Source of the DNA: Vicinamibacteria bacterium
Lineage (GTDB): Bacteria; Acidobacteriota; Vicinamibacteria; Vicinamibacterales; JAENWD01
Reading direction: 5' to 3'
DNA length: 64,000 nt
Assembly: GCA_963787035.1 (NCBI GenBank)
Contig: CAWBBN010000015.1
Location: 430,306-494,305 of the forward strand
The stretch's first letter is position 1. Every line of letters starts with the position of its first letter. The position numbers and the translations under genes were made by a program. This document shows, in pieces, positions 4,495 to 58,281 of this stretch. The notes under the pieces were generated by a model. It was not told the DNA's origin and made no database searches. It saw only the letters and a program-made list of their open reading frames with translations.

Positions 4495-4921
4495 CTTCGC
4501 GCCAGCGCTCGACCCACTTTCCATCCACTCGCTCGAGAGCCACGGCGCCGTGCTGCGGAAACGCGGCATCGGCGCCAGTCAGCTCCGTCAGCAATCCCGG
4601 CAGCAACGGATAGTGGCTGACGACCATCAGGTCGTCGGTCTCCGCCCCGAGCACGTCCGCCAGGTTTTCCGGATCGTCATCCGGCTGCAGCCCGCGTTGC
4701 GCGGCAAACGTCGCCGCGGGATTCACGGCGTGCCAGTAGATCTCCGCCGTCTCGCGCGCGCGCAGCTTGCCGCTGTGCCACACCGCGACCGGCCTGACGC
4801 CGTGCGTCGCGACACGCGACGACACCGACGCGGCCTGCTGGCGTCCGAGCTCCGACAGCGGACGCGTGGCATCGACGATGCCGGTGACGGCATCGGCGTG
4901 GTGGACAAGGATGAGTAACAT
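4484..4921 (-). CDS. sixA: Phosphohistidine phosphatase SixA (histidine phosphatase superfamily)
   Basis: N-terminus MLLILVHHADA (RHG-type catalytic His motif). ~145 aa, which is the typical SixA length. Confidence 0.7.
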   Translation of the reverse strand: MLLILVHHADAVTGIVDATRPLSELGRQQAASVSSRVATHGVRPVAVWHSGKLRARETAEIYWHAVNPAATFAAQRGLQPDDDPENLADVLGAETDDLMVVSHYPLLPGLLTELTGADAAFPQHGAVALERVDGKWVERWREATT

Positions 4922-4926
4922 CGCGC

Positions 4927-6230
4927 TTATGACTGCGGCTTGCGGCCGTCGAGCTCCTCGTCGAACAGCCCGCGAATCTCCGGCGCCTGCACCTCGCGCG
5001 TGGCCTTCTCGACGACCTGCACTTCGGGGATGTCGTCCCCGTGCGCAGCGCCGAGCTCACGGAAACGTCGCGCCGTGACGAGGACGCGCGTTTCGAGCGA
5101 GGCGACAGATCGATTGTAGGCCTCTACGGCCTTGTCGAGCCCGCGCTTCACGTCGTCATAGTGGGTCGCCAGCACGAGCAGACGATCGTAGAGCTGCCTG
5201 CCGAGCTCGCTGATTTCCTGCGCGTTGGCCTGGATCCGCTCCTGGCGCCAGCCGTAGGAGACCGCTTTCAGCAGCGCGATGAGCGTGGTCGGGCTGGCCA
5301 GGATGACGCGGTTCGACATCCCGTGCTCGAGCAGCAGCGGGATCCTGCGTGAGGGCGGCGCTGAACAGCGCCTCGCCCGGCAGGAACATGATCACGAACT
5401 CGGGCGTGTCGTCGAACTGGCTCCAGTACGCCTTGCTGCCGAGCCGGGTCAGGTGATCGCGCACCTGCCGCGCGTGGTCGGCGAGCGAGCGCAGCGCGCT
5501 CGGCCTCGTCCTCCGATTCGATCGCGTCGAAGTACGCCGCCAGCGGCGTCTTGGCGTCCACGATGACGCGCTTGTTGCCGGGGAGGCGGACCATGAGATC
5601 GGGCCGCATGCGGACGTCGTCCACCGTGAAGGTTTCCTGCTCGACGAAGTCGGTGTGCTCGACCATCCCGGCCAGCTCGACGACCTGGCGGAGCTGCACC
5701 TCGCCCCAGTGCCCGCGGACGTGCGGCTGGCGCAGCGCCTTCACCAGGCGGCCGGTTTCGCCTTGCAGCGTGGAGAGCCCGGTGCCGAGCGCGCGCAGCT
5801 GCTCGGCCAGCGTCGCGGAGGTCGACACGCGATCCTTCTCGACGTCGATCATCCGGGCGTCGACGGCCTTCAGCGTCTCCGCGATCGGGCGGACCATCTC
5901 CGAGATCGACTGCTCGCGCTGCTTGAGGTCCCCCGTCGCGCGCTCGTGGAACTTCTCGAGCGTTGAGGTCGCGAGGGTGACCACGGATTCCGTGTTCGCC
6001 TGCAGCGCTTCGGCCGCCGTGGACCTGAAGACGTCGCGGAGCTGCTGCTCGGCGCGATCGAGCAGCGTCTGCCTGTCGTTGGCCGCTTCGAGGCGCGCTT
6101 CGGCCGCGGCCGCGCGTGCCGCCGCGGCCGCCGTCGCCTCAGCGACCTTGCGACCTTCCTGCTGCCGGACGACGAGCCAGGTTAGAAACCCGCCGGCCGC
6201 AAACGCGAGCAGCAGCTCGAGAAGTTGCAC
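4927..6230 (-). CDS. rmuC: DNA recombination protein RmuC; at least two apparent frameshifts
   Basis: Three overlapping minus-strand ORFs (5268-6230, 5156-5464, 4927-5319) together read an N-terminal TM plus coiled coil, then ...[17 protein letters not shown]..., ...[28 protein letters not shown]... and ...[23 protein letters not shown].... Each joins RmuC family sequence in a different frame. Confidence 0.7.
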
Positions 6231-6908: not shown

Positions 6909-8272
6909 CATGTTCCGTCGCCTGTCGAGGCCCCTCGAGGCCGCTTTCCTGCTCATCCTGGCCCTGGCGTCGCCGGCGGGGCTGGCCGCCCGGACTGCCT
7001 CCGGCCGGCGAGCCCGTCATCGCCATCACCCACGCCACGATCCTGACGGTCACCAACGGGGTCATCGCCGACGGCACCGTCCTCATCCGTGGCGGACGAA
7101 TCGCCGAGGTGGGCCGGAACGTGACCGTCCCGTCCGGCGCCGAGGTCATCGACGCCACCGGCCGTTTCGTCTCGCCGGGCATCATCGACTGCCACTCGCA
7201 CATCGCCGCCGACTCGATCAACGAGGGCGGCACGACCGTCAGCTCGATGACCGGGATCGAGGACGTCTTCAACCCGACCGACATCGACATCTACCGCGAC
7301 CTCGCCGGCGGCCTGACGACCGCCAACGTGCTGCACGGCAGCGCGAACCCGATCGGCGGGAAGAACTACGTGATCAAGCTGCGCTGGGGCAAGCCGCACG
7401 CCGAGGACTTCAAGTTCGAGGGCGCGATGCCGGGCATCAAGTTCGCCCTCGGCGAGAACCCGAAGGACATGCGGCAGTTCGGCCAGCAGGGGCCGCGGCG
7501 GTACCCGAGCAGCCGGCTCGGCGTCGAGTACGTCATCCGCGACGCGTTCACGCGCGCGAAGGCGTACCAGGCGGCGTGGAAGGCGTACGACGCGAAGAAG
7601 AAGACCGCCGAGGGCGTGCTGCCGCCGCGCCGCGACCTGCAGCTCGAGCCGCTGGTCGAAGTGCTCGAGGGCAAGCGGCTCGTGCACGCGCACTGCTATC
7701 GCTCGGACGAAATCCTGATGCTGCTCCGGCTCGCCGACGAGATGGGCTTCAAGGTGGCGACGCTGCAGCACGCGCTCGAGGCGTATCGCGTCGCGCCGGA
7801 GATCAAGGCGCATGGCGCGGGCGTCTCGACGTTCGCGGACTGGTGGGGCTACAAGGTCGAGGCGAGCGGCGCGACGCCCTGGAATGCGGCCATGTGCCTG
7901 CGCCGCGGCATCGTCGTGTCGATCAACTCCGACAGCGCGGAGCACGCGCGGCGGCTGAACACCGAGGCCGCGAAGATGATCAAGTACGGCGGCCTCACCG
8001 AAGACGAGGCGCTGGCGCTGGTGACGATCAACCCGGCGAAGCAGCTGCGCATCGACAACCGCGTCGGGATCGATCGAGGTCGGCAAGGACGCCGACGTCG
8101 TCATCTGGAATCACCATCCGCTCAGCAGCTACGCGCTGGCGGATCGCGTCTACATCGACGGCACGCTCTACTACGACCGGTCGAAAGAAGACCAGCGCGT
8201 CACGGATCTGAAGACGAAGAAGGACGCGCTGCTGAAGGCGGAGAAGGAGGCGGCGGAGAAGGCGAAGGCTGA
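6909..8272 (+). CDS. Amidohydrolase-family protein A (secreted); frame switches near 7000 and 8065
   Basis: Signal peptide MFRRLSRPLEAAFLLILALASPAGLAA in frame 1. Frame-2 core has GIIDCHSHIA (metal-binding HxH) and ...VHAHCYR.... The C-terminal VIWNHHPLSSYALADRVYIDGTLYYD reads in frame 0. Confidence 0.65.
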
Positions 8273-8388
8273 GAAGGCGGACAAGGGCGACAAGCAAGGG
8301 CCCGAAGGCCCCGCCGGCGAGCGCCAGCGAGCCGGCCCCTGCCGCGGAGCGCAGCGACGCGGCCCCCGCCCGAGCGGAGCGAGGGCCC

Positions 8389-9639
8389 ATGCCGGCGAGC
8401 GCCAGCGAGCCGGCCCCGTTCACATCACCAACGACTGCGCCAGCCATCGCCATCACCAACGCGCGGATCGTGCCCGTGACGTCCCCCGTGATCGAGAAAG
8501 GCACCATCGTCATCAAGGGCGGCCGCATCGTCGCGCTCGGGCCCGATGTGGCGGTGCCCGCAGGCGCCGAGGTCATCGACGCCGCGGGCAGCGAGGTCTA
8601 TCCGGGCTGGATCGAGCCGGCCACGTCGCTCGGGCTCGACGAGCCGGGCCCGCGTGGATTCCAGGACACGTCCGAGCAGACGCCGCTCAACCCGGAGCTG
8701 CGCACGCGCGTCGCGTTCCACGTCGAAAGCGACGGCATCCCCGTCGCGCGATCGAACGGCGTCACGACCGTCGGCGTCGCGCCCGACGGCGGCATCCTCG
8801 GCGGCGAGGTCGCGGTCATGAATCTCGACGGCTGGACCTGGGAGCAGGCCACGCTGCGCAAGTCCGCCGGCATCTCGATGCAGTTCCCGCCGGTGCGCCC
8901 GCCGCGGCGCTTCGGGGCGCCGCCCGCGCGCGACGAGTCCTACGACGACCTGAAGAAGGCGCGCGACAAGAAGCTCGACGACGTCGTCGCGTTGCTGGAG
9001 CGCGCGCGTGCGTACTCGGCAATGCCCCCGGCGTCGCGGCCCACGGATTGGGTGCTGGAATCGCTCGTGCCCGTGATCGACGGCGCCGCGCCGGTCTTCG
9101 TCGGCGCTGATTCCGAGGCCGACATCAAGGACGCGGTCGCGTTCGCGGATCGCGCGAAGATCCGCATCGTCATCGTCGGCGGCGCCGAGTCGCCGCTGGT
9201 CGCGTCGCTGCTGAAACAGAAGAACATCCCGGTCGTCTTCGGCCCGGTGCAGGACCTGCCGACGCGGCCGGATTTCCATCAGGCGGACCGCTACCGCGCC
9301 GCGGCCGCGCTGGCCGACGCGGGCGTGAAGTTCGCGTTCACGATGGGCGGCGACGAGACGTTCGAGCGTGACCTGCCCTATCAGGCGGCCGAATCGATCG
9401 CGTGGGGGCTGAGCCGGGACGCGGCGCTGCGCGCGCTGACCATCGACGCGGCCGCGATTCTGGGCGTCGACAAGGAGGTCGGCAGCCTCGAGCCGGGCAA
9501 GCTCGCGAATCTGTTCATCGCCAGGGGCGATCCCCTCGAGGTCCGCACCGAAGTGACCGAGGTGATCATCGCGGGCCGCCGCGTGGGCGTGGACAACATC
9601 CACCGGCAGTTCTACGAGAAGTGGTCGAAGAGGCCGTGA
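8389..9639 (+). CDS. Amidohydrolase-family protein B (no signal peptide; possibly a second domain fused to A through a Lys/Glu/Ala linker)
   Basis: 416-aa ORF. ...AITNARIVPVTSPVIEKGTIVIKGGRIVALG... parallels the N-terminal beta-sandwich of A and C. C-terminal ...GKLANLFIARGDPL.... Frames stay open between A and B. Confidence 0.6.
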   Translation: MPASASEPAPFTSPTTAPAIAITNARIVPVTSPVIEKGTIVIKGGRIVALGPDVAVPAGAEVIDAAGSEVYPGWIEPATSLGLDEPGPRGFQDTSEQTPLNPELRTRVAFHVESDGIPVARSNGVTTVGVAPDGGILGGEVAVMNLDGWTWEQATLRKSAGISMQFPPVRPPRRFGAPPARDESYDDLKKARDKKLDDVVALLERARAYSAMPPASRPTDWVLESLVPVIDGAAPVFVGADSEADIKDAVAFADRAKIRIVIVGGAESPLVASLLKQKNIPVVFGPVQDLPTRPDFHQADRYRAAAALADAGVKFAFTMGGDETFERDLPYQAAESIAWGLSRDAALRALTIDAAAILGVDKEVGSLEPGKLANLFIARGDPLEVRTEVTEVIIAGRRVGVDNIHRQFYEKWSKRP

Positions 9640-9729: not shown

Positions 9730-11053
9730 ATGAGGTTTCATATGCGTGTGCTCCGTGCGGCGGCCGTGGCCGTCGGCCTTCTGTCGATAGCCATCGCACC
9801 GCGTGTTCTTGCGGTCAGCGTGCCTGGTTACGCGATTCTCGGCGCGAAGATCGTCACCGTGCACGGCGCGACCATCGATCAGGGCACGGTCGTCATCCGC
9901 AACGGCGTCGTCGAGTCCGTGACCGATGGCGTGAAGAGCCCGGGCGGCGTCGAAGAGATCGACGGCAAGGGTCTGGTGGTCTATCCGGGTCTCGTCGATC
10001 TCAACAGCACCGTCGGCCTGGACCAGCCACAGGCCGGAGGCGCCGAAGGACCCCGAGACGCGCGAGGTGAGCGAGCGCTGGCGCCGGCAGCAGCTCGTGC
10101 ACGCGGACCTTTCCGCCGCCGATTTCCTTCGGCCCGAATCTCCAGATCTCGGCAAGCTCGCCGGCATCGGCGTGACGAACGCGCTCGTCGTCCCGAAGGG
10201 CGACGGCATCAGCGGCGAGAGCGCATTCATCGACGTCGCGGGGCCGGAGATCGATCCCCAGTACGGGCGCGTTGCGCTCGATCCGCGCGGCCCGATGATT
10301 CTCAGGACGCCGGTGGCGCTGCACGTGTCGTTCCCGGGCCGCGGTCTCTTCGGCGCGTATCCCGCATCGCTGATGGGCGGCATCGCGTTTACGCGACAGG
10401 CGTTTCTCGACGCCCAGCGCTACAAGCTCGCGGCGTCGAAGGCTGACGCCACCGGCGATCGCCCGGCGTACGATCCGGCGCTTGCCGCGATGGCGAGCGC
10501 CCTGGGCGCGAAGCTTCCGGTGGCGTTCGAGGCGAATTCCGCGCGCGAGATCCGGCGGGTCCTGGCATTCGCGAAGGACTTCTCGCTCGATCCGATCGTC
10601 GTCGGCGGCGTGAGCGCGGGCGAAGTGGCTGCCGATCTGAAGGCCGCAGGCGCGCGGGTGATCATCAGCCTGAACTACCCGGAGCGTCCGAAGACGCTGG
10701 CGCCCGACGCAGACGAGCCGCTCGAAGACGTGCAGGACCGCGCGGACGCCCGCAGGGCGGCCGGGCAGCTCGCGGCGGCCGGCGTGCCGTTCGGCTTCGG
10801 GTCGCACGGCCTCAAGGACGTGAAGGACTTCCTGCCGAACGTGCGAAGCGCCGTCTCAAACGGCCTCAGCGCGGACGCCGCGGTGAAGGCGCTGACGCTC
10901 GACGCGGCGACGATCGCCGGCATGGGATCAAAGCTGGGCGCGATCGAAAAGGGCCGGATGGCAAATCTTGTCGTGACGGACGGCGATCTCCTCGGGGCGA
11001 AGACGAAGGTGAAGTACGTCTTCGTCGAAGGCCGCCGCATCGCGCTGCCATAG
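9730..11053 (+). CDS. Amidohydrolase-family protein C (secreted); frame switch near 10050
   Basis: Signal peptide [50 protein letters not shown]-terminal ...[32 protein letters not shown] in ORF 10067-11053. Confidence 0.65.
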
Positions 11054-19241: not shown

Positions 19242-19261
19242 GGCTGGCGCCGGGCCGCGGA

Positions 19262-19440
19262 GGACGCGGAGGGTTTCACAGAGACGCGGAGACTACACAG
19301 AGACACAGAGAAACGCGGGGTTGCCGGGGACCGCCCTGGCCACGGTGGACCGGGCGGCCCCCGGCAACCCCGCGTCCCTCTGTGTCTCCGTGTAGCCTCC
19401 GTGACTCTGTGAAGCTCTCTGCGGTCTCCGGGGCGTTCCT
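19262..19440. repeat. ~180-bp imperfect palindromic element with CACAGAG-rich arms, upstream of hisI
   Basis: Left arm TCACAGAGACGCGGAGACTACACAGAGACACAGAGAAACGCGGGGTTGCCGGGG. The right arm is its near-perfect reverse complement. Related to the element at 59940-60215 (shared CACAGAGMCGCGGAGA). Confidence 0.55.
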
Positions 19441-30648: not shown

Positions 30649-32500
30649 ATGACTGTTTTTGCGCTGTCCCTCGGCTGGCTCTGGGCGCTCCCGGCGCTGG
30701 TCCTCCTCCTGGCCATCGCGCTGTTTGTCACGGTGGTCGGCGGCTGGATCATCCGGGCCGACCAGTCAGGGCTGGTGATCAAGAAGTTCGGAGCCCCCCT
30801 CCCGACGGGCCGCATCATCGCCCTCGACGGCGAGGCGGGCTATCAGGCGCGGCTCCTGTCGCCGGGCTGGTACTTCGGCTACTGGCGCTGGCGCTATCGC
30901 ATCATCCGCGTGCCGGTGACGATCGTCGAGCCGGGCCAGATCGCGCTCGTCGTCGCCGCCGACGGCGCGGCGATTCCGTCCGAGCGGGTGCTCGGACGCG
31001 CGGTGGCGTGCGACAACTTCCAGGACGCGGAGGCGTTCCTGCGCGGCGGCGGCGAACGCGGGCGGCAGCTCGGGTTCCTGACCGCCGGCACGTATCGCAT
31101 CAACCCGGCGCTCTTCGACGTCGTCAAGGGAGAGAGCGCCGAGCAGTACTCGATGGTCCCTGAGGACCTGCGCGTCTACCAGATGGCGACCGATCGCATC
31201 GGCATCGTGACCGTCCTGGACGGCCAGCCCGATTCCGGCGGGCGATCTCGCGGGCCCGATCGTCGCGGGCCACGACAGCTTCCAGCGCGGCCAGGCGTTC
31301 ATCGAGGCCGGCGGCTGCCGCGGCCTGCAGGAGGAGGTGCTGCTCTCGGGCTCGTGGAACCTGAACCCGTGGTTCGTGCGCGTGGAGATGGTGCCGCTGA
31401 CGGAGATCCCGATCGGCTATGTCGGCGTGGTCGTGAGCTACGTCGGCAACGAGCACCTGGATGTCTCGGGCGACACGTTCACGCACGGCGACCTGGTCGA
31501 AAAGGGCCGCAAGGGCGTGTGGGTGGAGCCGCTGCTTCCGGGCAAGCACCCGGTCAACACGCGCGTGATGAAGGTCGAGCTCGTGCCGACGACCAACATC
31601 GTGCTGAACTGGGCGCAGCGAACCGAAGCGCACCAGTACGACCAGCGGCTGTCGTCGATCCTCGTGCGGTCGAAGGACGGCTTCTCGTTCAGCCTCGACG
31701 TGGCGCAGATCATCCACATCGGGATGAAGAACGCGCCGCGCGTGATTTCGCGCGTCGGGTCGATGCAGAACCTGGTGGATCACGTCCTGCAGCCGACCGT
31801 CGGCAACTACTTCAGGAACTCCGCGCAGGAGGTGACGGTGCTCGAGTTCCTGTCGGCGCGGACGCTGCGCCAGAAGGAGGCGTTCGACAACATCAAGAAG
31901 GCGGTCGAAGCCTACGACGTCGAGTGCATCGACACGCTGATCGGCGACATCGTGCCGCCGGCCGAGCTGATGAAGACGCAGACCGACCGGAAGATCGCCG
32001 AGGAGCTGGAGCGCACCTACGAGGTACAGCGCGAGGCGCAGGTCCAGCGCCAGGCGCTCGAGCGGGAGACGGCCGTCGCCAACATGCAGAACGAGGTCGT
32101 TCGCTCGGAGCAGACCGTGCGGATCTCGCAGCAGACGGCGCTCTCGGCGGCCGAATCAGCGCGCGGTGAAGGCAACGCGGCGCGGCTGCGCGCGGAAGGC
32201 CACGCGGCGGCCGTGCGGTTGAACGGCGAGGCCGAAGCGGCGGCGGTTCGCGCGGTGGGTGCGGCCAAGGCCGACGCCTACAAGCAGGGCATGGACGCCG
32301 TCGGCGGCGCCGGCTACACCGCCATCCAGCTGGCGACGATCCTGGGCGAGCACAACGTGAAGCTCGTCCCGGAGATCGCAGTCAGCGGCGACGGCAGCGG
32401 CGGCCTCATCAACGCGATGGTCGCGAAGATGCTGGCCGGGAACGGAGGACTGAGGCAGAAGGGCCGGCGCTTCGCTGCAGGGCGGGGGCCCTTCGGGCAC
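30649..32500 (+). CDS. SPFH/band-7 (flotillin-like) membrane protein; frameshift near 31240; 3' end uncertain
   Basis: N-terminal TM ALPALVLLLAIALFVTVV. SPFH core …IGYVGVVVSYVGNEH…. Long Ala/Glu/Gln-rich coiled coil (…ERETAVANMQNEV…). The C-terminal tail merges into a GC-rich repeat element. Confidence 0.6.
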
Positions 32501-32643
32501 GGGTCCGGAGGGCCTTCGCCGGCGAGCGAAAGCTGCGCCGGCCCTGCCGCGGAGCGAAGCGACGCGGCCCTCGCCGGGCGAAGCCCGGCCCCGTCCCAGG
32601 CAACTCCCCCGCCACGACCTCCGTCTATGTTCTCCGGAGGCCC

Positions 32644-33414
32644 TTGTCCATGCGTCCTGCCCTGACCCGCCTGTCCCGTTCGGCTGCCGTCGCCCTGCTC
32701 CTCCTCGGCGTCCCCGCGCTGTCCTCGGCCGCGTCCAAGGAAACCGAGCGTGTCGAGAAGACCGTGACGTTTTCGCCAGGCGGCACGCTGAAACTCAAGA
32801 ACTTCTCGGGCAACGTCGAGATCACCGGCGAAGATCGGGCCGACATCTCGCTCGTCGCGGTCCGTACCGCCACCCGCGATCGCCTCGATCACGTCAAGCT
32901 CGACATCCAGACCTCCGGAGATACGGTCACCATCGACGCCAACAAGCGCGACGGCGACTGGGAGCACCACGACGACAACGTGGTCGACACGGCGTTCACG
33001 ATCAGGGTGCCGAAGAACGCGAACCTCGACGTCGACGTGTTCAGCAGCGCCGTGAGCGTGGCTGGCGTGTCGGGACGCCATCACGTGCACGGCTTCTCGT
33101 CCGAGCTGAGCGTGACCGGCAGCACCGGGCCGGTTGACGCCGAGACCTTCAGCGGCGCCATCCATGTGGCGCCGGCGTCGTGGCAGAAGGATCAGACGCT
33201 GCGGGCGAAGACGTTCAGCGGCGACATCGAGGTGACGCTGCCGGCCGCCGCGACCGGCTCAGTGGAGTTCGATTCGTTCAGCGGCGACATGAGCTCGTCG
33301 GTGCCGATGCTGTTCCAGAGCAAGAGCAAGCGCTCGCTGCACGCGCAGCTCGCGTCGGGGCCGAACGGGTCGTTGTCGTTCCACACCTTCAGCGGAGATG
33401 TGCGGCTGAAGTAG
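32644..33414 (+). CDS. DUF4097-type all-beta repeat protein (LiaF-like), secreted
   Basis: Signal peptide …LSRSAAVALLLLGVPALSSAAS. Repeated FSGN/FSGD beta-strand motifs (NFSGNVEITGED, FSGAIHV, FSGDIEVTL, FSGDMSS, FSGDVRLK). Confidence 0.6.
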   Translation: MSMRPALTRLSRSAAVALLLLGVPALSSAASKETERVEKTVTFSPGGTLKLKNFSGNVEITGEDRADISLVAVRTATRDRLDHVKLDIQTSGDTVTIDANKRDGDWEHHDDNVVDTAFTIRVPKNANLDVDVFSSAVSVAGVSGRHHVHGFSSELSVTGSTGPVDAETFSGAIHVAPASWQKDQTLRAKTFSGDIEVTLPAAATGSVEFDSFSGDMSSSVPMLFQSKSKRSLHAQLASGPNGSLSFHTFSGDVRLK

Positions 33415-33420
33415 GGGCCG

Positions 33421-33580
33421 GCCTTCGGCCGGCGAAGGCCGCTGCGCGGCGGGCCCTCGCTTCGCTCGGGCTGGGGCCACGTCGCTTCGCTCCGTGGCGG
33501 GGCAAAGGCGCTTTCCCTGCCGCGGGCGAAGCCGAGCGGCCCTCGCCGCGAGCGAAGCGAGCGGCCTACTTCCTGAACCC
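33421..33580. repeat. GC-rich REP-like element cluster (family A: GGCCGGCCTTCGGCCGGC hairpin + CGAGCGAAGCGAGSGGCC module)
   Basis: GGCCGGCCTTCGGCCGGCGAAGGCCGC…GGCCCTCGCTTCGCTCGGG…CCGCGAGCGAAGCGAGCGGCC. Related copies lie at 8340-8390, 29040-29105, 32526-32585, 37015-37075, 38040-38130, 48723-48800 and 57775-57860. Confidence 0.55.
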
Positions 33581-35673: not shown

Positions 35674-37008
35674 TGGCGGGCGGCTGGCTGGCGCGCCTCG
35701 GGCTGCGCACTCGGGAGCAGCGCGCGTGGGCCATGTACGACTGGGCCAACTCCGCGTTCCAGTGCACGATCATCACCGCCGTTTTCCCGATCTACTTCGC
35801 GAAGGTCGCCGCCGAAGGGATGCCCGACGCGCTGGCCACGGCGCGCTTTGCGCATGGCGACGACGGTGGCCCTCACGGTGACCGCGATTCTGGCGCCGGT
35901 GCTTGGCGCCTACGCGGACTACGCCGGCGTGAAGAAGCGCCTGCTCGGCGTCTTCCTCGGCCTCGGCGTCATCGCGACCGCCGCGATGTATCTCATCGGG
36001 CCCGGGGACTGGAAGCTCGCCGCGTGGCTGTTCATCGCGTCGAACATCTGCATCTCGGCGAGCTTCGTCTTCTACGACTCGCTGCTGCCCCACATCGCCG
36101 ACGGCGAGGAGATGGATCGCGTCTCGAGCGCGGGGTACGCGCTCGGCTATCTGGGCGGCGGCCTGCTGCTGGCGATCAACCTGGCGTGGATCCTCAAGCC
36201 GCAGATGTTCGGCCTCCGCGATTCCGGCGTGGCGTCGCGCGTGTCGTTCGTCAGCGTCGCGGTCTGGTGGCTGCTCTTCTCGATTCCGCTGTTCCGCCGC
36301 GTGCCCGAGCCGTCGGTGCGGCCCTCGGATCTGCCTCCGGGCATCGGCCCGGTGCGCGCGTCGTTCCAGCAACTCGGCGCGACGATCCGGGAGCTGCGGC
36401 GGTTCCGCGAAGCATTCCTGATGCTCGTGGCCTTCCTGATCTACAACGACGGCATCGGCACGATCATCCGCATGGCAGGCCCGTACGGCCAGGAGATCGG
36501 GCTGCCGGAGAACGCCCTCATCAGCGCGTTCGTGATGGTCCAGTTCGTCGGCATCCCGTTCGCCTTCGCGTTCGGCGCACTGGCCGATCGCATCGGCGCC
36601 AAGCGAGCGATCTTTCTCGCCCTCATCGTCTACGTCGGCATCAGCGTCGTCGGCTACTTCATGACGTCCGCGTGGCAGTTCTGGCTGCTGTCGTTCATGG
36701 TCGCGATGGTGCAGGGCGGAAGCCAGGCGCTCTCGCGGTCGCTCTTCGCGAGCATGATCCCCAAGGAGAAGTCGTCGGAGTTCTTCGGCTTCTTCGGCGT
36801 CTTCGAGAAGTTCGCGGGGATCTTCGGGCCTGCGCTTTTCGCGATCACGGTGCAGCTCACCGGATCGAGCCGCCACGCGATCCTCTCGGTGATCGGGTTC
36901 TTCGTCGTGGGAGCCGTGCTCCTCGCGCGGGTGGACGTCGCGAAGGGGCAAGCCGCGGCGCGGGAATGGACCGCGCGGCATGCGGAACTCGCCGCGCGGC
37001 CGAACTAG
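35673..37008 (+). CDS. MFS transporter (UMF1/Atg22-like family); frameshift near 35850
   Basis: …[25 protein letters not shown]… then a 12-TM body in ORF 35848-37008. Confidence 0.65.
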
Positions 37009-37077
37009 GGCAACCGCAGGCCCTCGCTGCGCTCGGGCGGGCCGGCTTCGCCGGCAAGGCCGCGCCTTGCGCGGCGG

Positions 37078-37990
37078 CTAGCGCCGGATCCGTTCGCGCG
37101 CCTCGGGCCTCGCGAACGCGTTCTGCAGCGAGTGCCCGTTGAACGTCAACACGGTGCGCCAGAACTCCTGCGCCTTCGTGTGATCGCCGGTCTTCTCCGC
37201 GGCCCTCGCCTCGAGCATCACGACGAACGGATCCTGCTGATCGGCGCCGGAGAGCGCCGCGAGCGCGGCGTGCGCGTCGCCGGCGTAGAGCTCCACATAG
37301 CCGGTGAGATACGCGAGGGCCGTGGCCTGATCCTGCAGCGCCGGTGATTTCGCGACGAGCGCCTGCGCCTCGGCCAGCTTCGTGCGCGCGTCGCGACGAT
37401 GGCCGTCACGCGCCGCAATGCGGGCCTGCGCGTGCAGCCAGCGGAACTGCCAGAGAGCGAGCTGCGATGCCGGCTCGTCGCGTTGCCGGCGCGCGGTCTC
37501 GTAGCCGGTCTCGTACCAACGCCGCGCCTGCTTCGTGTTGCCGGACTCCAGGTAGAGGCGCCCGAGGGCGTTGGCTGCTTCAGCCGCCGACGCCGGGCGC
37601 TCGGCCGACTCGAGGTCGTACGCCTGCCGGTAGAACTCGGCGCCCTGGTCTGCCTTCCGCTCGAACGCGTACGACACGGCCATCGCGTTCAGCGCCGTGA
37701 CCTTGCTCTCAGGAGGCGCGAGGGCAATGGCGCGCGTGAGATGCCCGCGCGCGTCGGCATAGCGCCCCTCGAGATCGAGCGCGATCCCCATCGCGAGATG
37801 GCCCTCGAAGAGATTCGGATCGATCGCCAGCGCCTGCTCGTAGAGCTTGATGGCTTCAGGCTGCTTCCCGGCAGCGTTGAGGCGACTGGCCCTGAGTCAC
37901 GAGCTTCAGCGGATCCGCGGCTTCCTGCGCGGCTGCGAGATTCGCGACGAGAAGCAGAACGAGCGTGAAGGCGGATGTGGTACGCAAGCC
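37078..37990 (-). CDS. Secreted TPR-repeat protein; frameshift near 37880
   Basis: TPR-like helices (…[11 protein letters not shown]…, …[11 protein letters not shown]…). Signal-like …[19 protein letters not shown] in an adjacent frame. Confidence 0.55.
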
Positions 37991-48718: not shown

Positions 48719-48793
48719 CTGTCTTTCCTGCCCGAGCGAAGCGAGGGCCCCGCCGGCCGAAGGCCGGCCCCGCCGCGAGCGAAGCGAGCGGCC

Positions 48794-49838
48794 CTACTTG
48801 AGTGGCAACTCCGCTTCCACCGGCATCCCCGGCTTCAGCACGCCGTTCCTGTTGTCCGCGCTCACCTTGATCCGGTACACGAGCTTCGATCGCTCCTCCG
48901 CCGTCTGCACGTTCCTCGGCGTGAACTCCGCGCGCGGTGAGATGTAGGTGACCTTGCCCTGAATGCCGGCGCCACCCGCATCGGTGTAGAGCGTGGCCGA
49001 CTGTCCCAGGGTCAGCCGCGGCACCGTCGGCTCATCCACGAACACTTCGCCCCACGCGTCGTCCAGGTCGGTGACGACGACGAGCGGCGAGCGCGGCGCG
49101 ACGAGCTCGCCTTCGTTCACCAGCTTTTCGGTGACGATCCCGCCGACCGGCGACGTGACGGTGGCATCGTGCTGCGCCTTCTGCAGCGTCGCGATCTGCG
49201 CGTCCACGGCGGCGAGCCGCGCTTTCGCGGCGTCGATCTCTTCGCGGCGCGCGCCGGCGCGAACGCGAGCGGCCGTTTCCCTGGCGCTGCGCGCGCGCTC
49301 TTTCGCGGCGTTCACATGCTGCTCGGCGACGTCGCGGCGCGCCTTGGCGTCGTCACGGGCTTTCTGGGAGCCCGCATTGGCGCGCAGCAGCGACTCGTAG
49401 CGTTCGAGATCGGTCTGCGCGTTGGCAGAGATCCGCGGTCGCGGCGGCGACATCGGCGTCCGAGGCCTGAGCCTGGGCGTCGGCCTGACGGATGTCCTCC
49501 GGACGCGACCCGGCGAGGAGAAGCCGCACCTGGGCGTCGGCCTGGGCGCGATCGGCCTGGGCGCGCTGCAGTGAGAGCTCGGTGTCGCGCGTGTCGAGCT
49601 GCGCGACGAGATCGCCCTTGTTGACGCGGTCCCCCTCCTTCACCTTCAGCTCGAGGATGCGTCCGCCCACTTCCGGGGCGACCTGCACGTCGTCTGCCTC
49701 GACGTGACCTGAGACGCGCGTGCGGTCCGTCGGTCCAGCCTTGCGGCAGCTCGTCAACGCGAGCGACGACGCGACCGCGAGCGGCAGCACGAGGGCGAGG
49801 ACCGCGCGGGCCGGGCGGTCAGCGGTGCGAATGAGCAT
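48794..49838 (-). CDS. HlyD-family membrane-fusion protein; frameshift near 49420
   Basis: Signal/TM, then …VSGHVEADDVQVAPEVGGRILELKVKEGDRV…, a coiled coil, and …VTSPVGGIVTEKLVNEGELV…GMPVEAELPLK. Confidence 0.75.
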
Positions 49839-57708: not shown

Positions 57709-57852
57709 GCGCTCATTTCACCGCGGAGGCCACGGCGCGGTCGATCCGGGGCTTGCGGTCAAACTCAGGGCCGGCTTCGCCGGGCAGGGCCGGCCTTCGG
57801 CCGGCAGGGGCCCTCGCTGCGCTCGGGCGGGGCCGCTTCGCGGCGGGGCAGC

Positions 57853-58281
57853 TCAGCGCTTCTCACAGCGAGCCTTCAGCCCGTTGGCTTCCATCGCGAG
57901 ATAGCGCTCGTTGATGTCCTTCGTCATCCAGGCGACGAGCTTCGCGAGGAGCCCCTCGTAGCGAATCGACAGCGTCACGCGCGAGCCGCCGGCGCGAGGG
58001 TCGATCGAGTGGTGCGCGGTGACGAGGATGCCCGGGCCTTTCGAGATCCAGGTGAAGCTGCGTCCCGGTTCGATCGCGCTGACGGTCCAGAGCGCGGGCG
58101 GGAGTTTCGGCTGGCGGATGCGGGCGCGGCTGCCGATCGCGAACGGGCCGGAATCGAGGCGCGTGATGCTGGTCACCGAGGGCGTCCACTCGGGCCACCG
58201 TTCGACATCCGACATGACGGCCAGCACCGCGTCGGGCGCGGCGTTGATGTCGACCGACTTCGAGAAGCTGAGCGGAGTCAC
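57853..58281 (-). CDS. SRPBCC (polyketide_cyc2/START-like) protein
   Basis: 142 aa. …VMSDVERWPEWTPSV…. Confidence 0.65.
   Translation of the reverse strand: MTPLSFSKSVDINAAPDAVLAVMSDVERWPEWTPSVTSITRLDSGPFAIGSRARIRQPKLPPALWTVSAIEPGRSFTWISKGPGILVTAHHSIDPRAGGSRVTLSIRYEGLLAKLVAWMTKDINERYLAMEANGLKARCEKR

Follow-up and report, generated by a model that had tools for sequence, protein, structure and literature searches.

A probable translated mosaic of small hairpin repeats in the interdomain linker of a double amidohydrolase gene from Vicinamibacteria

We examined a 64,000-nt stretch of DNA from a soil-dwelling Vicinamibacteria bacterium (contig CAWBBN010000015.1, positions 430,306 to 494,305; referred to here as the window, in whose own coordinates all positions are given) and found that a pair of perfect 27-bp direct repeats, located within a gene for a secreted double amidohydrolase, is two copies of one unit, unit a, in an array of small hairpins. 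The region 8298–8417 is a mosaic of small GC-rich stem-loop repeats, in the order a-b-c-a/d, situated in the hypervariable linker between the two domains of the enzyme and probably translated as part of it. It is quite likely that a composite resembling repetitive extragenic palindromic (REP) sequences and bacterial interspersed mosaic elements (BIMEs) entered a disordered, low-complexity linker that already existed, and that the protein tolerates it as a spacer rich in Pro, Ala, Ser and Glu, whose units turn over in multiples of 3.

The repeat GCCGGCGAGCGCCAGCGAGCCGGCCCC, which corresponds to GCGGCGAGCGCCAGCGAGCCGGCCCC with a leading G, is present at 8313–8339 and again at 8391–8417, with a perfect match and a start-to-start distance of 78 nt. 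These positions, and the 51 nt lying between the copies, are exactly as the initial annotation had given them. At a GC content of 0.692 the per-base match probability is 0.287, and raising it to the 27th power and multiplying by 2e9 position pairs gave, by our own arithmetic, about 5e-6 perfect 27-nt pairs expected by chance in 64 kb. The 105 nt spanned by the two copies consist of four consecutive head-to-tail hairpin units in the order a-b-c-a (27+27+24+27 nt), and a fifth, imperfect CCCGAAGG mini-hairpin is found upstream of the first one. The peptide PASASEPAP, described earlier as duplicated with a 78-bp period, is indeed read in frame 1 of the array (PASASEPAPAAERSDAAPARAERGPMPASASEPAP, including PASASEPAP...MPASASEPAP), while the period itself did not hold, since Tandem Repeats Finder reported 4.3 copies of period 28 at 8307–8418 and no period of 78. 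The features of the linker, all on the + strand, are the following.

8168–8297, +: Lys/Glu-rich first part of the linker, DRSKEDQRVTDLKTKKDALLKAEKEAAEKAKAEKADKGDK, translated in frame 0; the equivalent residues 423–457 of the orthologous protein P0001 are one long predicted helix
8298–8312, +: imperfect mini-hairpin GGGCCCGAAGGCCCC, whose counterpart in orthologues is the perfect CCCGAAGGG (PEGP) or, reverse-complemented, GGCCCTTCGGGC (GPSG)
8313–8339, +: unit a1, GCCGGC-GAGCGCCAGCGA-GCCGGC-CCC, with a 6-bp stem and a GCGNNAGC mini-hairpin core; PASASEPAP in the orthologue frame
8340–8366, +: unit b, T-GCCGCG-GAGCGCAGCGA-CGCGGC-CCC; AAERSDAAP in the orthologue frame
8367–8390, +: unit c, C-GCCC-GAGCGGAGCGA-GGGC-CCAT; ARAERGP
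8391–8417, +: unit a2, a perfect 27-mer, 100% identical to a1
8418–8472, +: last part of the linker, together with the first strand of domain B, with VHITND in frame 0, APAIAITNARIV in frame 1 and an extra T at 8436 between them

Each unit has a variable stem of 4–6 bp closing a GA/GA-flanked mini-hairpin, GCG(N or NN)AGC, which is followed by a CCC spacer. Units b and c have GCGNAGC as the mini-hairpin motif in their cores, and unit a has GCGNNAGC; the core GAGCG(N/NN)AGCGA is invariant in the units, the stem around it covaries, and all four linker units have their core on the + strand. Unit b is nearly identical to an intergenic unit at 32544–32570, and the stem and core of unit c recur in intergenic units at 33453–33471, 37020–37038, 48730–48748 and 57810–57828. 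The ViennaRNA fold of 8296–8420 consists of exactly the four hairpins (-72.1 kcal/mol, z = -2.2 as RNA), and as DNA the same segment gave z = -0.7, which is unremarkable for such a GC-rich sequence. The ATG at 8389–8391, from which the source record starts a separate "B" protein, straddles the boundary of units c and a2, its A and T closing c and its G opening a2; across the orthologues this boundary codon is ATG, GTG or TTG.

The site of the array is the interdomain linker of one gene and not, as had been described, a junction between two amidohydrolase genes A and B. A conceptual 908-aa query comprising A, the linker and B matched single proteins of 895–922 aa at 85–95% identity and 100% coverage, among them P0001 (904 aa) and P0002 (897 aa), each 95% identical (P and L numbers refer to proteins and loci of relatives, respectively). 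Among the matches listed, 120 of 120 were single proteins (819–944 aa, with 84–100% of the fused query aligned). Furthermore, 80 species-representative loci, mostly labelled Vicinamibacterales or other Acidobacteriota, and 80 metagenome loci matched across the junction, with a top genome-contig match of 89% identity. The suggestion that A and B form one fused protein of ~900 aa is borne out by these 120 proteins and 160 related loci, and the fusion is old and general. A stop codon between A and B, which the initial annotation had named as a possible refutation, is not found inside the array in any forward frame.

No part of the alignment varies more than the linker. When the linker was left out, the ratio of nonsynonymous to synonymous substitution rates (dN/dS) against three relatives was 0.07–0.12, which argues for a working gene and speaks against an old pseudogene. 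In the AlphaFold2 model of P0001 there are two confident domains, and the Lys/Glu-rich residues 423–457 form the long helix. The array-encoded residues 459–499, located between the two well-modelled domains, have a predicted local distance difference test (pLDDT) score below 50 and no secondary structure, hence this segment of the linker is predicted to be disordered.

6910–9639, +: gene for the ~908-aa secreted double amidohydrolase, whose successive parts are placed in frames 1, 2, 0 and 1 by insertions of single bases

The product is laid out as a signal peptide, a catalytic domain A with an HxH motif, the linker and an amidohydrolase-like domain B with no HxH. The metal-binding HxH of domain A lies in PGIIDCHSHIA; it is missing in domain B (8590–8640, YPGWIEPATSLGL) as well as in the downstream amidohydrolase C (9950–10000), and both are probably amidohydrolase-like domains that lack catalytic activity and are paired with an active domain.

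For the frame breaks, the clean syntenic contig L165, carrying RmuC (433 aa), the fused amidohydrolase AB (895 aa) and C (436 aa), was used as the reference. Over the coding regions, the window showed 29 frameshifting differences to it, 27 insertions vs 2 deletions. Outside the divergent linker the extra bases are single, occur about once per 0.7–0.9 kb, and do not lie in homopolymers; the frameshifting differences interrupt all three genes, RmuC, AB and that of the third amidohydrolase (for instance at 5268–6230 in RmuC, 6996, 8069, 10032–10034, 11198, 11794 and 13019). Homopolymer deletion errors, considered as a cause of the junction frameshifts, were ruled out by this insertion-dominated profile. 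Public protein records include the 416-aa "B" open reading frame (ORF) starting at ATG 8389, taken from a contig of 530,891 bp, and therefore the breaks belong to the deposited record, whose annotation is probably fragmented throughout, with other genes also hit. We infer that the frame breaks of the window are sequence errors.

Deleting T6996, A8069 and one of T8436 or C8295 restores a 908-codon ORF with no internal stop. Removal of T8436 puts the array in frame 0, giving AGERQRAGPCRGAQRRGPRPSGARAHAGERQRAGP (AGERQRAGP...) with the conserved VHITND after it, while if C8295 is removed the array reads PASASEPAPAAERSDAAPARAERGPMPASASEPAP (PASASEPAP...), as in the orthologues, and is followed by FTSPTT replacing VHITND. 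The two solutions are equally economical, and the protein is fused under either of them.

Close relatives (83–95% identity) read the units in frame, yielding PASxSEPAP, AAERSxAAP and ARAERGP, and the intact orthologues of 897–913 aa in which this happens come from independent assemblies. The REP-like nature of the sequence, and its keeping a linker in frame, both raised by the initial annotation, were supported. The layouts seen in the relatives were as follows.

L002, L085, L091 and L087: a-b-c and a residual piece of a (GCCGGCCGCC)
L005: a-b-c-a, the last unit lacking its 5′ half
L003: a-c-a, the two a units differing slightly
L004: b-c-a
L001: a-c-d, a d-type unit replacing a2
L086: b-c-d, a d-type unit replacing a2
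P0250 (912 aa), at the protein level: the layout of the window, PASESEPAP-AAERSDAVP-ARAERVP-MPASASEPA
P0246, at the protein level: a-b-c, then a shortened a

Unit a2 is present in L003, L004, P0250 and P0246, and because it can be followed, with L005, in orthologues down to 83% identity, the a-b-c-a layout is old. In L002, L085, L087 and L091 the loop and one arm of a2 are deleted (17 nt in the alignment of the L002 group). The arms of unit a are also direct repeats, since GCCGGC is its own reverse complement, and slippage between them would remove exactly this part, which may explain the loss in the L002 group. The 100% identity of a1 and a2 in the window could reflect a recent conversion between both. 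On the other hand, the array units were not found in the linkers of P0004/L165, P0006/L088 and P0007/L166 (85–91% identity), and these linkers are unrelated.

The linkers of some relatives carry GGCCCTTCGGGC mini-hairpins translated as GPSG, in the form KGPSGK or EGPSGE (L004 at 7340–7370, L005, L086 at 2400–2470 and L166 at 4730–4790). As GGCCCTTCGGGC is the reverse complement of the CCCGAAGGG of the window at 8301–8309, this tiny palindrome is translated both ways in different strains.

The linker units belong to a family dispersed over the window. The motif GAGCGNAGCGA occurs 11 times, vs 1.1 expected, and none of 100 shuffles reached 11. Perfect stems of 4–6 bp, differing in sequence, flank 12 of 13 motif occurrences, namely 10 of the 11 copies of GAGCGNAGCGA and both a units with their 12-nt core. 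Aligning 11 units showed an invariant core and 100% pairing at the four inner stem pairs, and 17 double-sided stem changes were counted vs 6.4 ± 1.7 in shuffles (0 of 500 reaching this number), with the slid controls collapsing. About 21 units with perfect stems are present in the 64 kb, clustered in six arrays, five of them between ORFs, which simpler C-GAA-G hairpins such as GCCGGCCGAAGGCCGGC also join. A hairpin census specific to the family gave 36 vs 11–24 in shuffles, and a generic census of clustered GC-rich stems of at least 5 bp showed no enrichment (15 arrays vs 13–26 in shuffles). At gathering thresholds, Rfam returned no family match over the whole window. Apart from the linker, the arrays are the following.

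32490–32592, +: post-flotillin array with a-like, b and d-like units; in relatives, flotillin stops upstream of the array
33415–33565, no strand assigned: at least five units in both orientations, filling the spacer of two convergent genes
37005–37077, -: intergenic array directly after the stop codon of ORF 37078–37791
48729–48793, +: intergenic array of three units (c, d, f)
57771–57862, -: intergenic array of four to five units, c and d among them

Of these arrays, the last four are located between ORFs, each starting at, or right after, a stop codon; mixed unit orientation is confined to the array at 33.4 kb, and the c-d adjacency is seen again at 48.7 and 57.8 kb. The likeness of the linker to the post-flotillin element, which the initial annotation had noticed, was confirmed by alignment of 8311–8389 with 32516–32592 (65 of 75 positions identical, local score 49), where random 110-nt windows, used as the null, gave a mean score of 14.5.

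The flotillin ORF itself (31337–32665, Band_7) ends in relatives with ...MLAGKALQK* or ...GNGGNSK*, and the window does not have that stop. Compared with L167, about 8 nt (TAGGGGAT) are missing near 32440–32665, and the ORF thus runs through the array to 32665 in the same PAAERSDAA frame. This read-through means either that a second array is translated or that the sequence has a further defect.

The relative L167, which shares its 88-kb contig with L001, has a-b-c-d in the spacer following flotillin, matching the unit order of the linker, and 81 of 92 positions (88%) are identical between the two arrays (local score 62, against the same null mean of 14.5). The c-type core is present five times in 20 kb of L167. 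Elsewhere in the 168 fetched loci, this core matched the c unit of the linker itself, in L002, L005, L085, L087 and L091, and none of the remaining 162 loci has it; the family looks restricted to one lineage of Vicinamibacteria (Acidobacteriota). It is also dynamic, because unit content varies widely among the orthologous spacers, which hold 151 bp (window), about 215 bp (L167) and 54 bp (L168). In L168 (4800–5000), the spacer orthologous to the post-flotillin array holds another element, in which tandem 8-mers (GTGCGGAA)n and, after them, their complement make one long hairpin.

REP/BIME mosaics are known from Enterobacteria, Pseudomonas and Stenotrophomonas (Di Nocera et al. 2013, PMC3733652). 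The Vicinamibacteria units resemble them in being GC-rich imperfect palindromes of 20–30 nt whose arrays fill spacers, mostly just downstream of stop codons, in having a lineage-specific repertoire with a unit content that varies at one site among close relatives, and in recurring in composite orders (a-b-c-d, c-d). Thus the stem-loop palindrome and a dispersal mainly outside genes, typical of REPs, were both seen over the 64 kb and L167, as was the recurrent composite order typical of BIMEs, with a-b-c-(a/d) in the linker being close to a-b-c-d in L167. Unlike in BIMEs, the linker units are all in one orientation instead of alternating, and unlike in REPs, it is the loop, that is the mini-hairpin, which is conserved here, with the stem free to vary. 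The family is REP/BIME-like, with one in-frame copy inside a gene, and its kinship to REP is based on the hairpin, the dispersal and the mosaic features.

REPs have also been described inside genes (Di Nocera et al. 2013, PMC3733652), and the Rickettsia palindromic elements (RPEs; Ogata et al. 2000, as summarised in PMC3184786 and PMC3733652) are another known case. As with these, the array studied here is an in-frame palindromic repeat in a functional gene, encoding a peptide in a region that is predicted to be permissive, and its total of ~105–120 nt is similar to the length of an RPE. It differs from RPEs in being an array of separable units of ~25 nt, gained and lost one at a time, and not one element of 100–150 nt, in occurring in a different phylum, in a host site that was already a low-complexity linker, and in having no CGTC tag. 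No sequence similarity to RPEs was seen in the Rfam scan, which involved no direct comparison with them. Mycobacterial interspersed repetitive units (MIRUs) are likewise short intercistronic repeats of frame-respecting lengths, with a copy number that varies by strain, like the linker units; however, they lie between the genes of operons, overlapping stop and start codons, and are not hairpins inside one ORF like the linker array.

The motifs GCGNAGC and GCGNNAGC have been described as exceptionally stable mini-hairpins of single-stranded DNA (reviewed in PMC13037366), and the unit cores contain exactly these two forms, flanked by GA...GA. That literature is biophysical and describes no dispersed bacterial repeat family or translated copies (PMC13037366).

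According to the explanation we favour, the array would have arrived in the existing linker by insertion or recombination and would have persisted as a Pro/Ala/Ser/Glu-rich spacer is harmless at that site, with units being gained, lost and shortened in multiples of 3 nt, probably by slippage or recombination between the repeated stems. If so, this is a small, clean case of selfish-type DNA feeding the evolution of a linker, parallel to the RPEs, and the relatives provide natural population data on repeats turning into protein, with in-frame gain and loss of units within a disordered linker. It would also add an apparently undescribed REP/BIME-like family of Vicinamibacteria, in which the GCGNAGC/GCGNNAGC mini-hairpin is conserved and the stems covary. 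For annotation, it means that the deposited record splits one enzyme of ~900 aa and places the start Met of "B" at the boundary of two repeat units.

Several points weigh against this explanation. No transposase or other mobilising gene was identified: the Pfam lists for the called genes of L001, L165, L167 and L168 (~60 kb of syntenic sequence) have no Y1 transposase, the ORFs of the window not having been scanned for the REP-associated tyrosine transposase (RAYT). REP units have a conserved GTAG (or CGTC) tetranucleotide at one end (PMC3733652). Among 11 units with their flanks, GTAG is found beside two only, on the opposite strand and in both cases within an AAG TAG gene stop, and CGTC beside none; with this tag missing, a REP-type (RAYT) mobilisation is unproven. 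The census covered the 64-kb window and ~60 kb of relatives, and the transfer could have run from spacer to gene or from gene to spacer. The frame in which this genome reads the array may be that of the T8436 or that of the C8295 solution. Moreover, compensatory changes in the coding copies keep the stems paired and hint at something beyond passive tolerance.

The sequence AAGTAGG, present at three gene ends adjoining arrays (33409–33416, 33566–33573 and 48794–48801), was considered as a REP tag and rejected, as relatives with other arrays keep the Lys-stop. At these three ends AAG TAG is followed by the GG(G)CC of the first hairpin, and the likeness to GTAG is probably coincidental.

The hairpins might instead be selected as nucleic-acid structure, either as an mRNA roadblock pausing ribosomes between the domains or as a structured internal start for a separate B, the latter using GGAG/GAGG in unit c followed by ATG, GTG or TTG. 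This seems unlikely. The canonical stems are ~94–97% paired across six orthologous b-c arrays, and two stem pairs of unit b are double-changed in L002 and L087 (GC to CG, and GC to AT via two synonymous changes), so that 5 double-changed cells were counted vs 2.5 ± 1.0 in shuffles, with 6 of 500 reaching 5. However, these are six distinct sequences only, L002 and L087 are close relatives whose two compensations may be one event in their lineage, and template-switch repair within quasi-palindromes can yield compensations with no selection. The G.A/A.G positions of unit c have become G-C/C-G or G.T/C-G in L086 and L001, but both changes are synonymous (CGA to CGC/CGT), in a direction favoured by the GC bias of third codon positions (GC3). 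The start codon at the c/a2 boundary in every orthologue seen also fits selection, yet an NTG there follows from the unit consensus ...CCC-N-TGCCGGC. Also in its favour, the unit periods of the linker are all multiples of 3 (27, 27, 24, 27), and those of the post-flotillin copy of L167 are 27, 26 and 22. Against it, stems are broken in orthologues (a in L001 and L002, b in L004 and L005, c in L003 and L004), relatives at 85–91% identity are entirely without units, and the fold z-scores are only -2.2 (RNA) and -0.7 (DNA).

It is rather unlikely that the array is a selected module of very stable mini-hairpins between the domains, pacing translation for co-translational folding or providing a structured start for the non-catalytic B. 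If it were, the frame of the array could differ between strains (AGERQRAGP... here vs PASASEPAP... in relatives), with the structure mattering rather than the peptide.

That A and B are truly two genes here, or that the fused gene is a true pseudogene with the array being intergenic, as implied by the deposited annotation, was considered because the 416-aa ORF from ATG 8389 is deposited and the gene as given has at least three frame breaks. However, the frame of A has no stop before or inside the array, the neighbours (RmuC, the third amidohydrolase and many others) share the insertions, at a density which is biologically implausible, dN/dS is low and all relatives are fused. We therefore rejected this reading, which is very unlikely in the light of the fused relatives, dN/dS and the window-wide insertions.

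A plain in-frame tandem duplication of a 78-bp coding piece of the linker, unrelated to the dispersed repeats, would account for a spacing that is a multiple of 3 and for a1 and a2 being 100% identical here and slightly different in L003. The initial annotation had offered it as one of two origins, but all three unit types recur at five intergenic sites with the same core and covarying stems, the period is ~28, the a-b-c-a layout in orthologues down to 83% identity leaves no need for a recent duplication, and a conversion between two old copies explains the identity of a1 and a2 equally well. This very improbable origin was rejected, being largely refuted by the dispersed copies.

The other origin offered, a REP-type 51-bp core inserted with a long, 27-bp target-site duplication, fits formally in that a direct repeat flanks a core of a repeat family, but is scarcely credible and was rejected, as each 27-mer is a complete family unit with its own stem and core, hence element and not target. 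Close orthologues have one or two copies of it, a truncated copy or none. In addition, the a-c-a, b-c-a and a-c-d layouts cannot arise from a single insertion with a target duplication, and a search of about 15 close relatives showed no empty site in which a lone 27-mer occurs and b-c is missing.

Finally, at 19254–19434 we identified a near-perfect palindrome of 181 nt, made up of two 90-nt arms, 83% complementary and 1 nt apart, which L001 does not have at the orthologous position. It has the look of a hairpin element inserted separately, possibly similar to miniature inverted-repeat transposable elements (MITEs).

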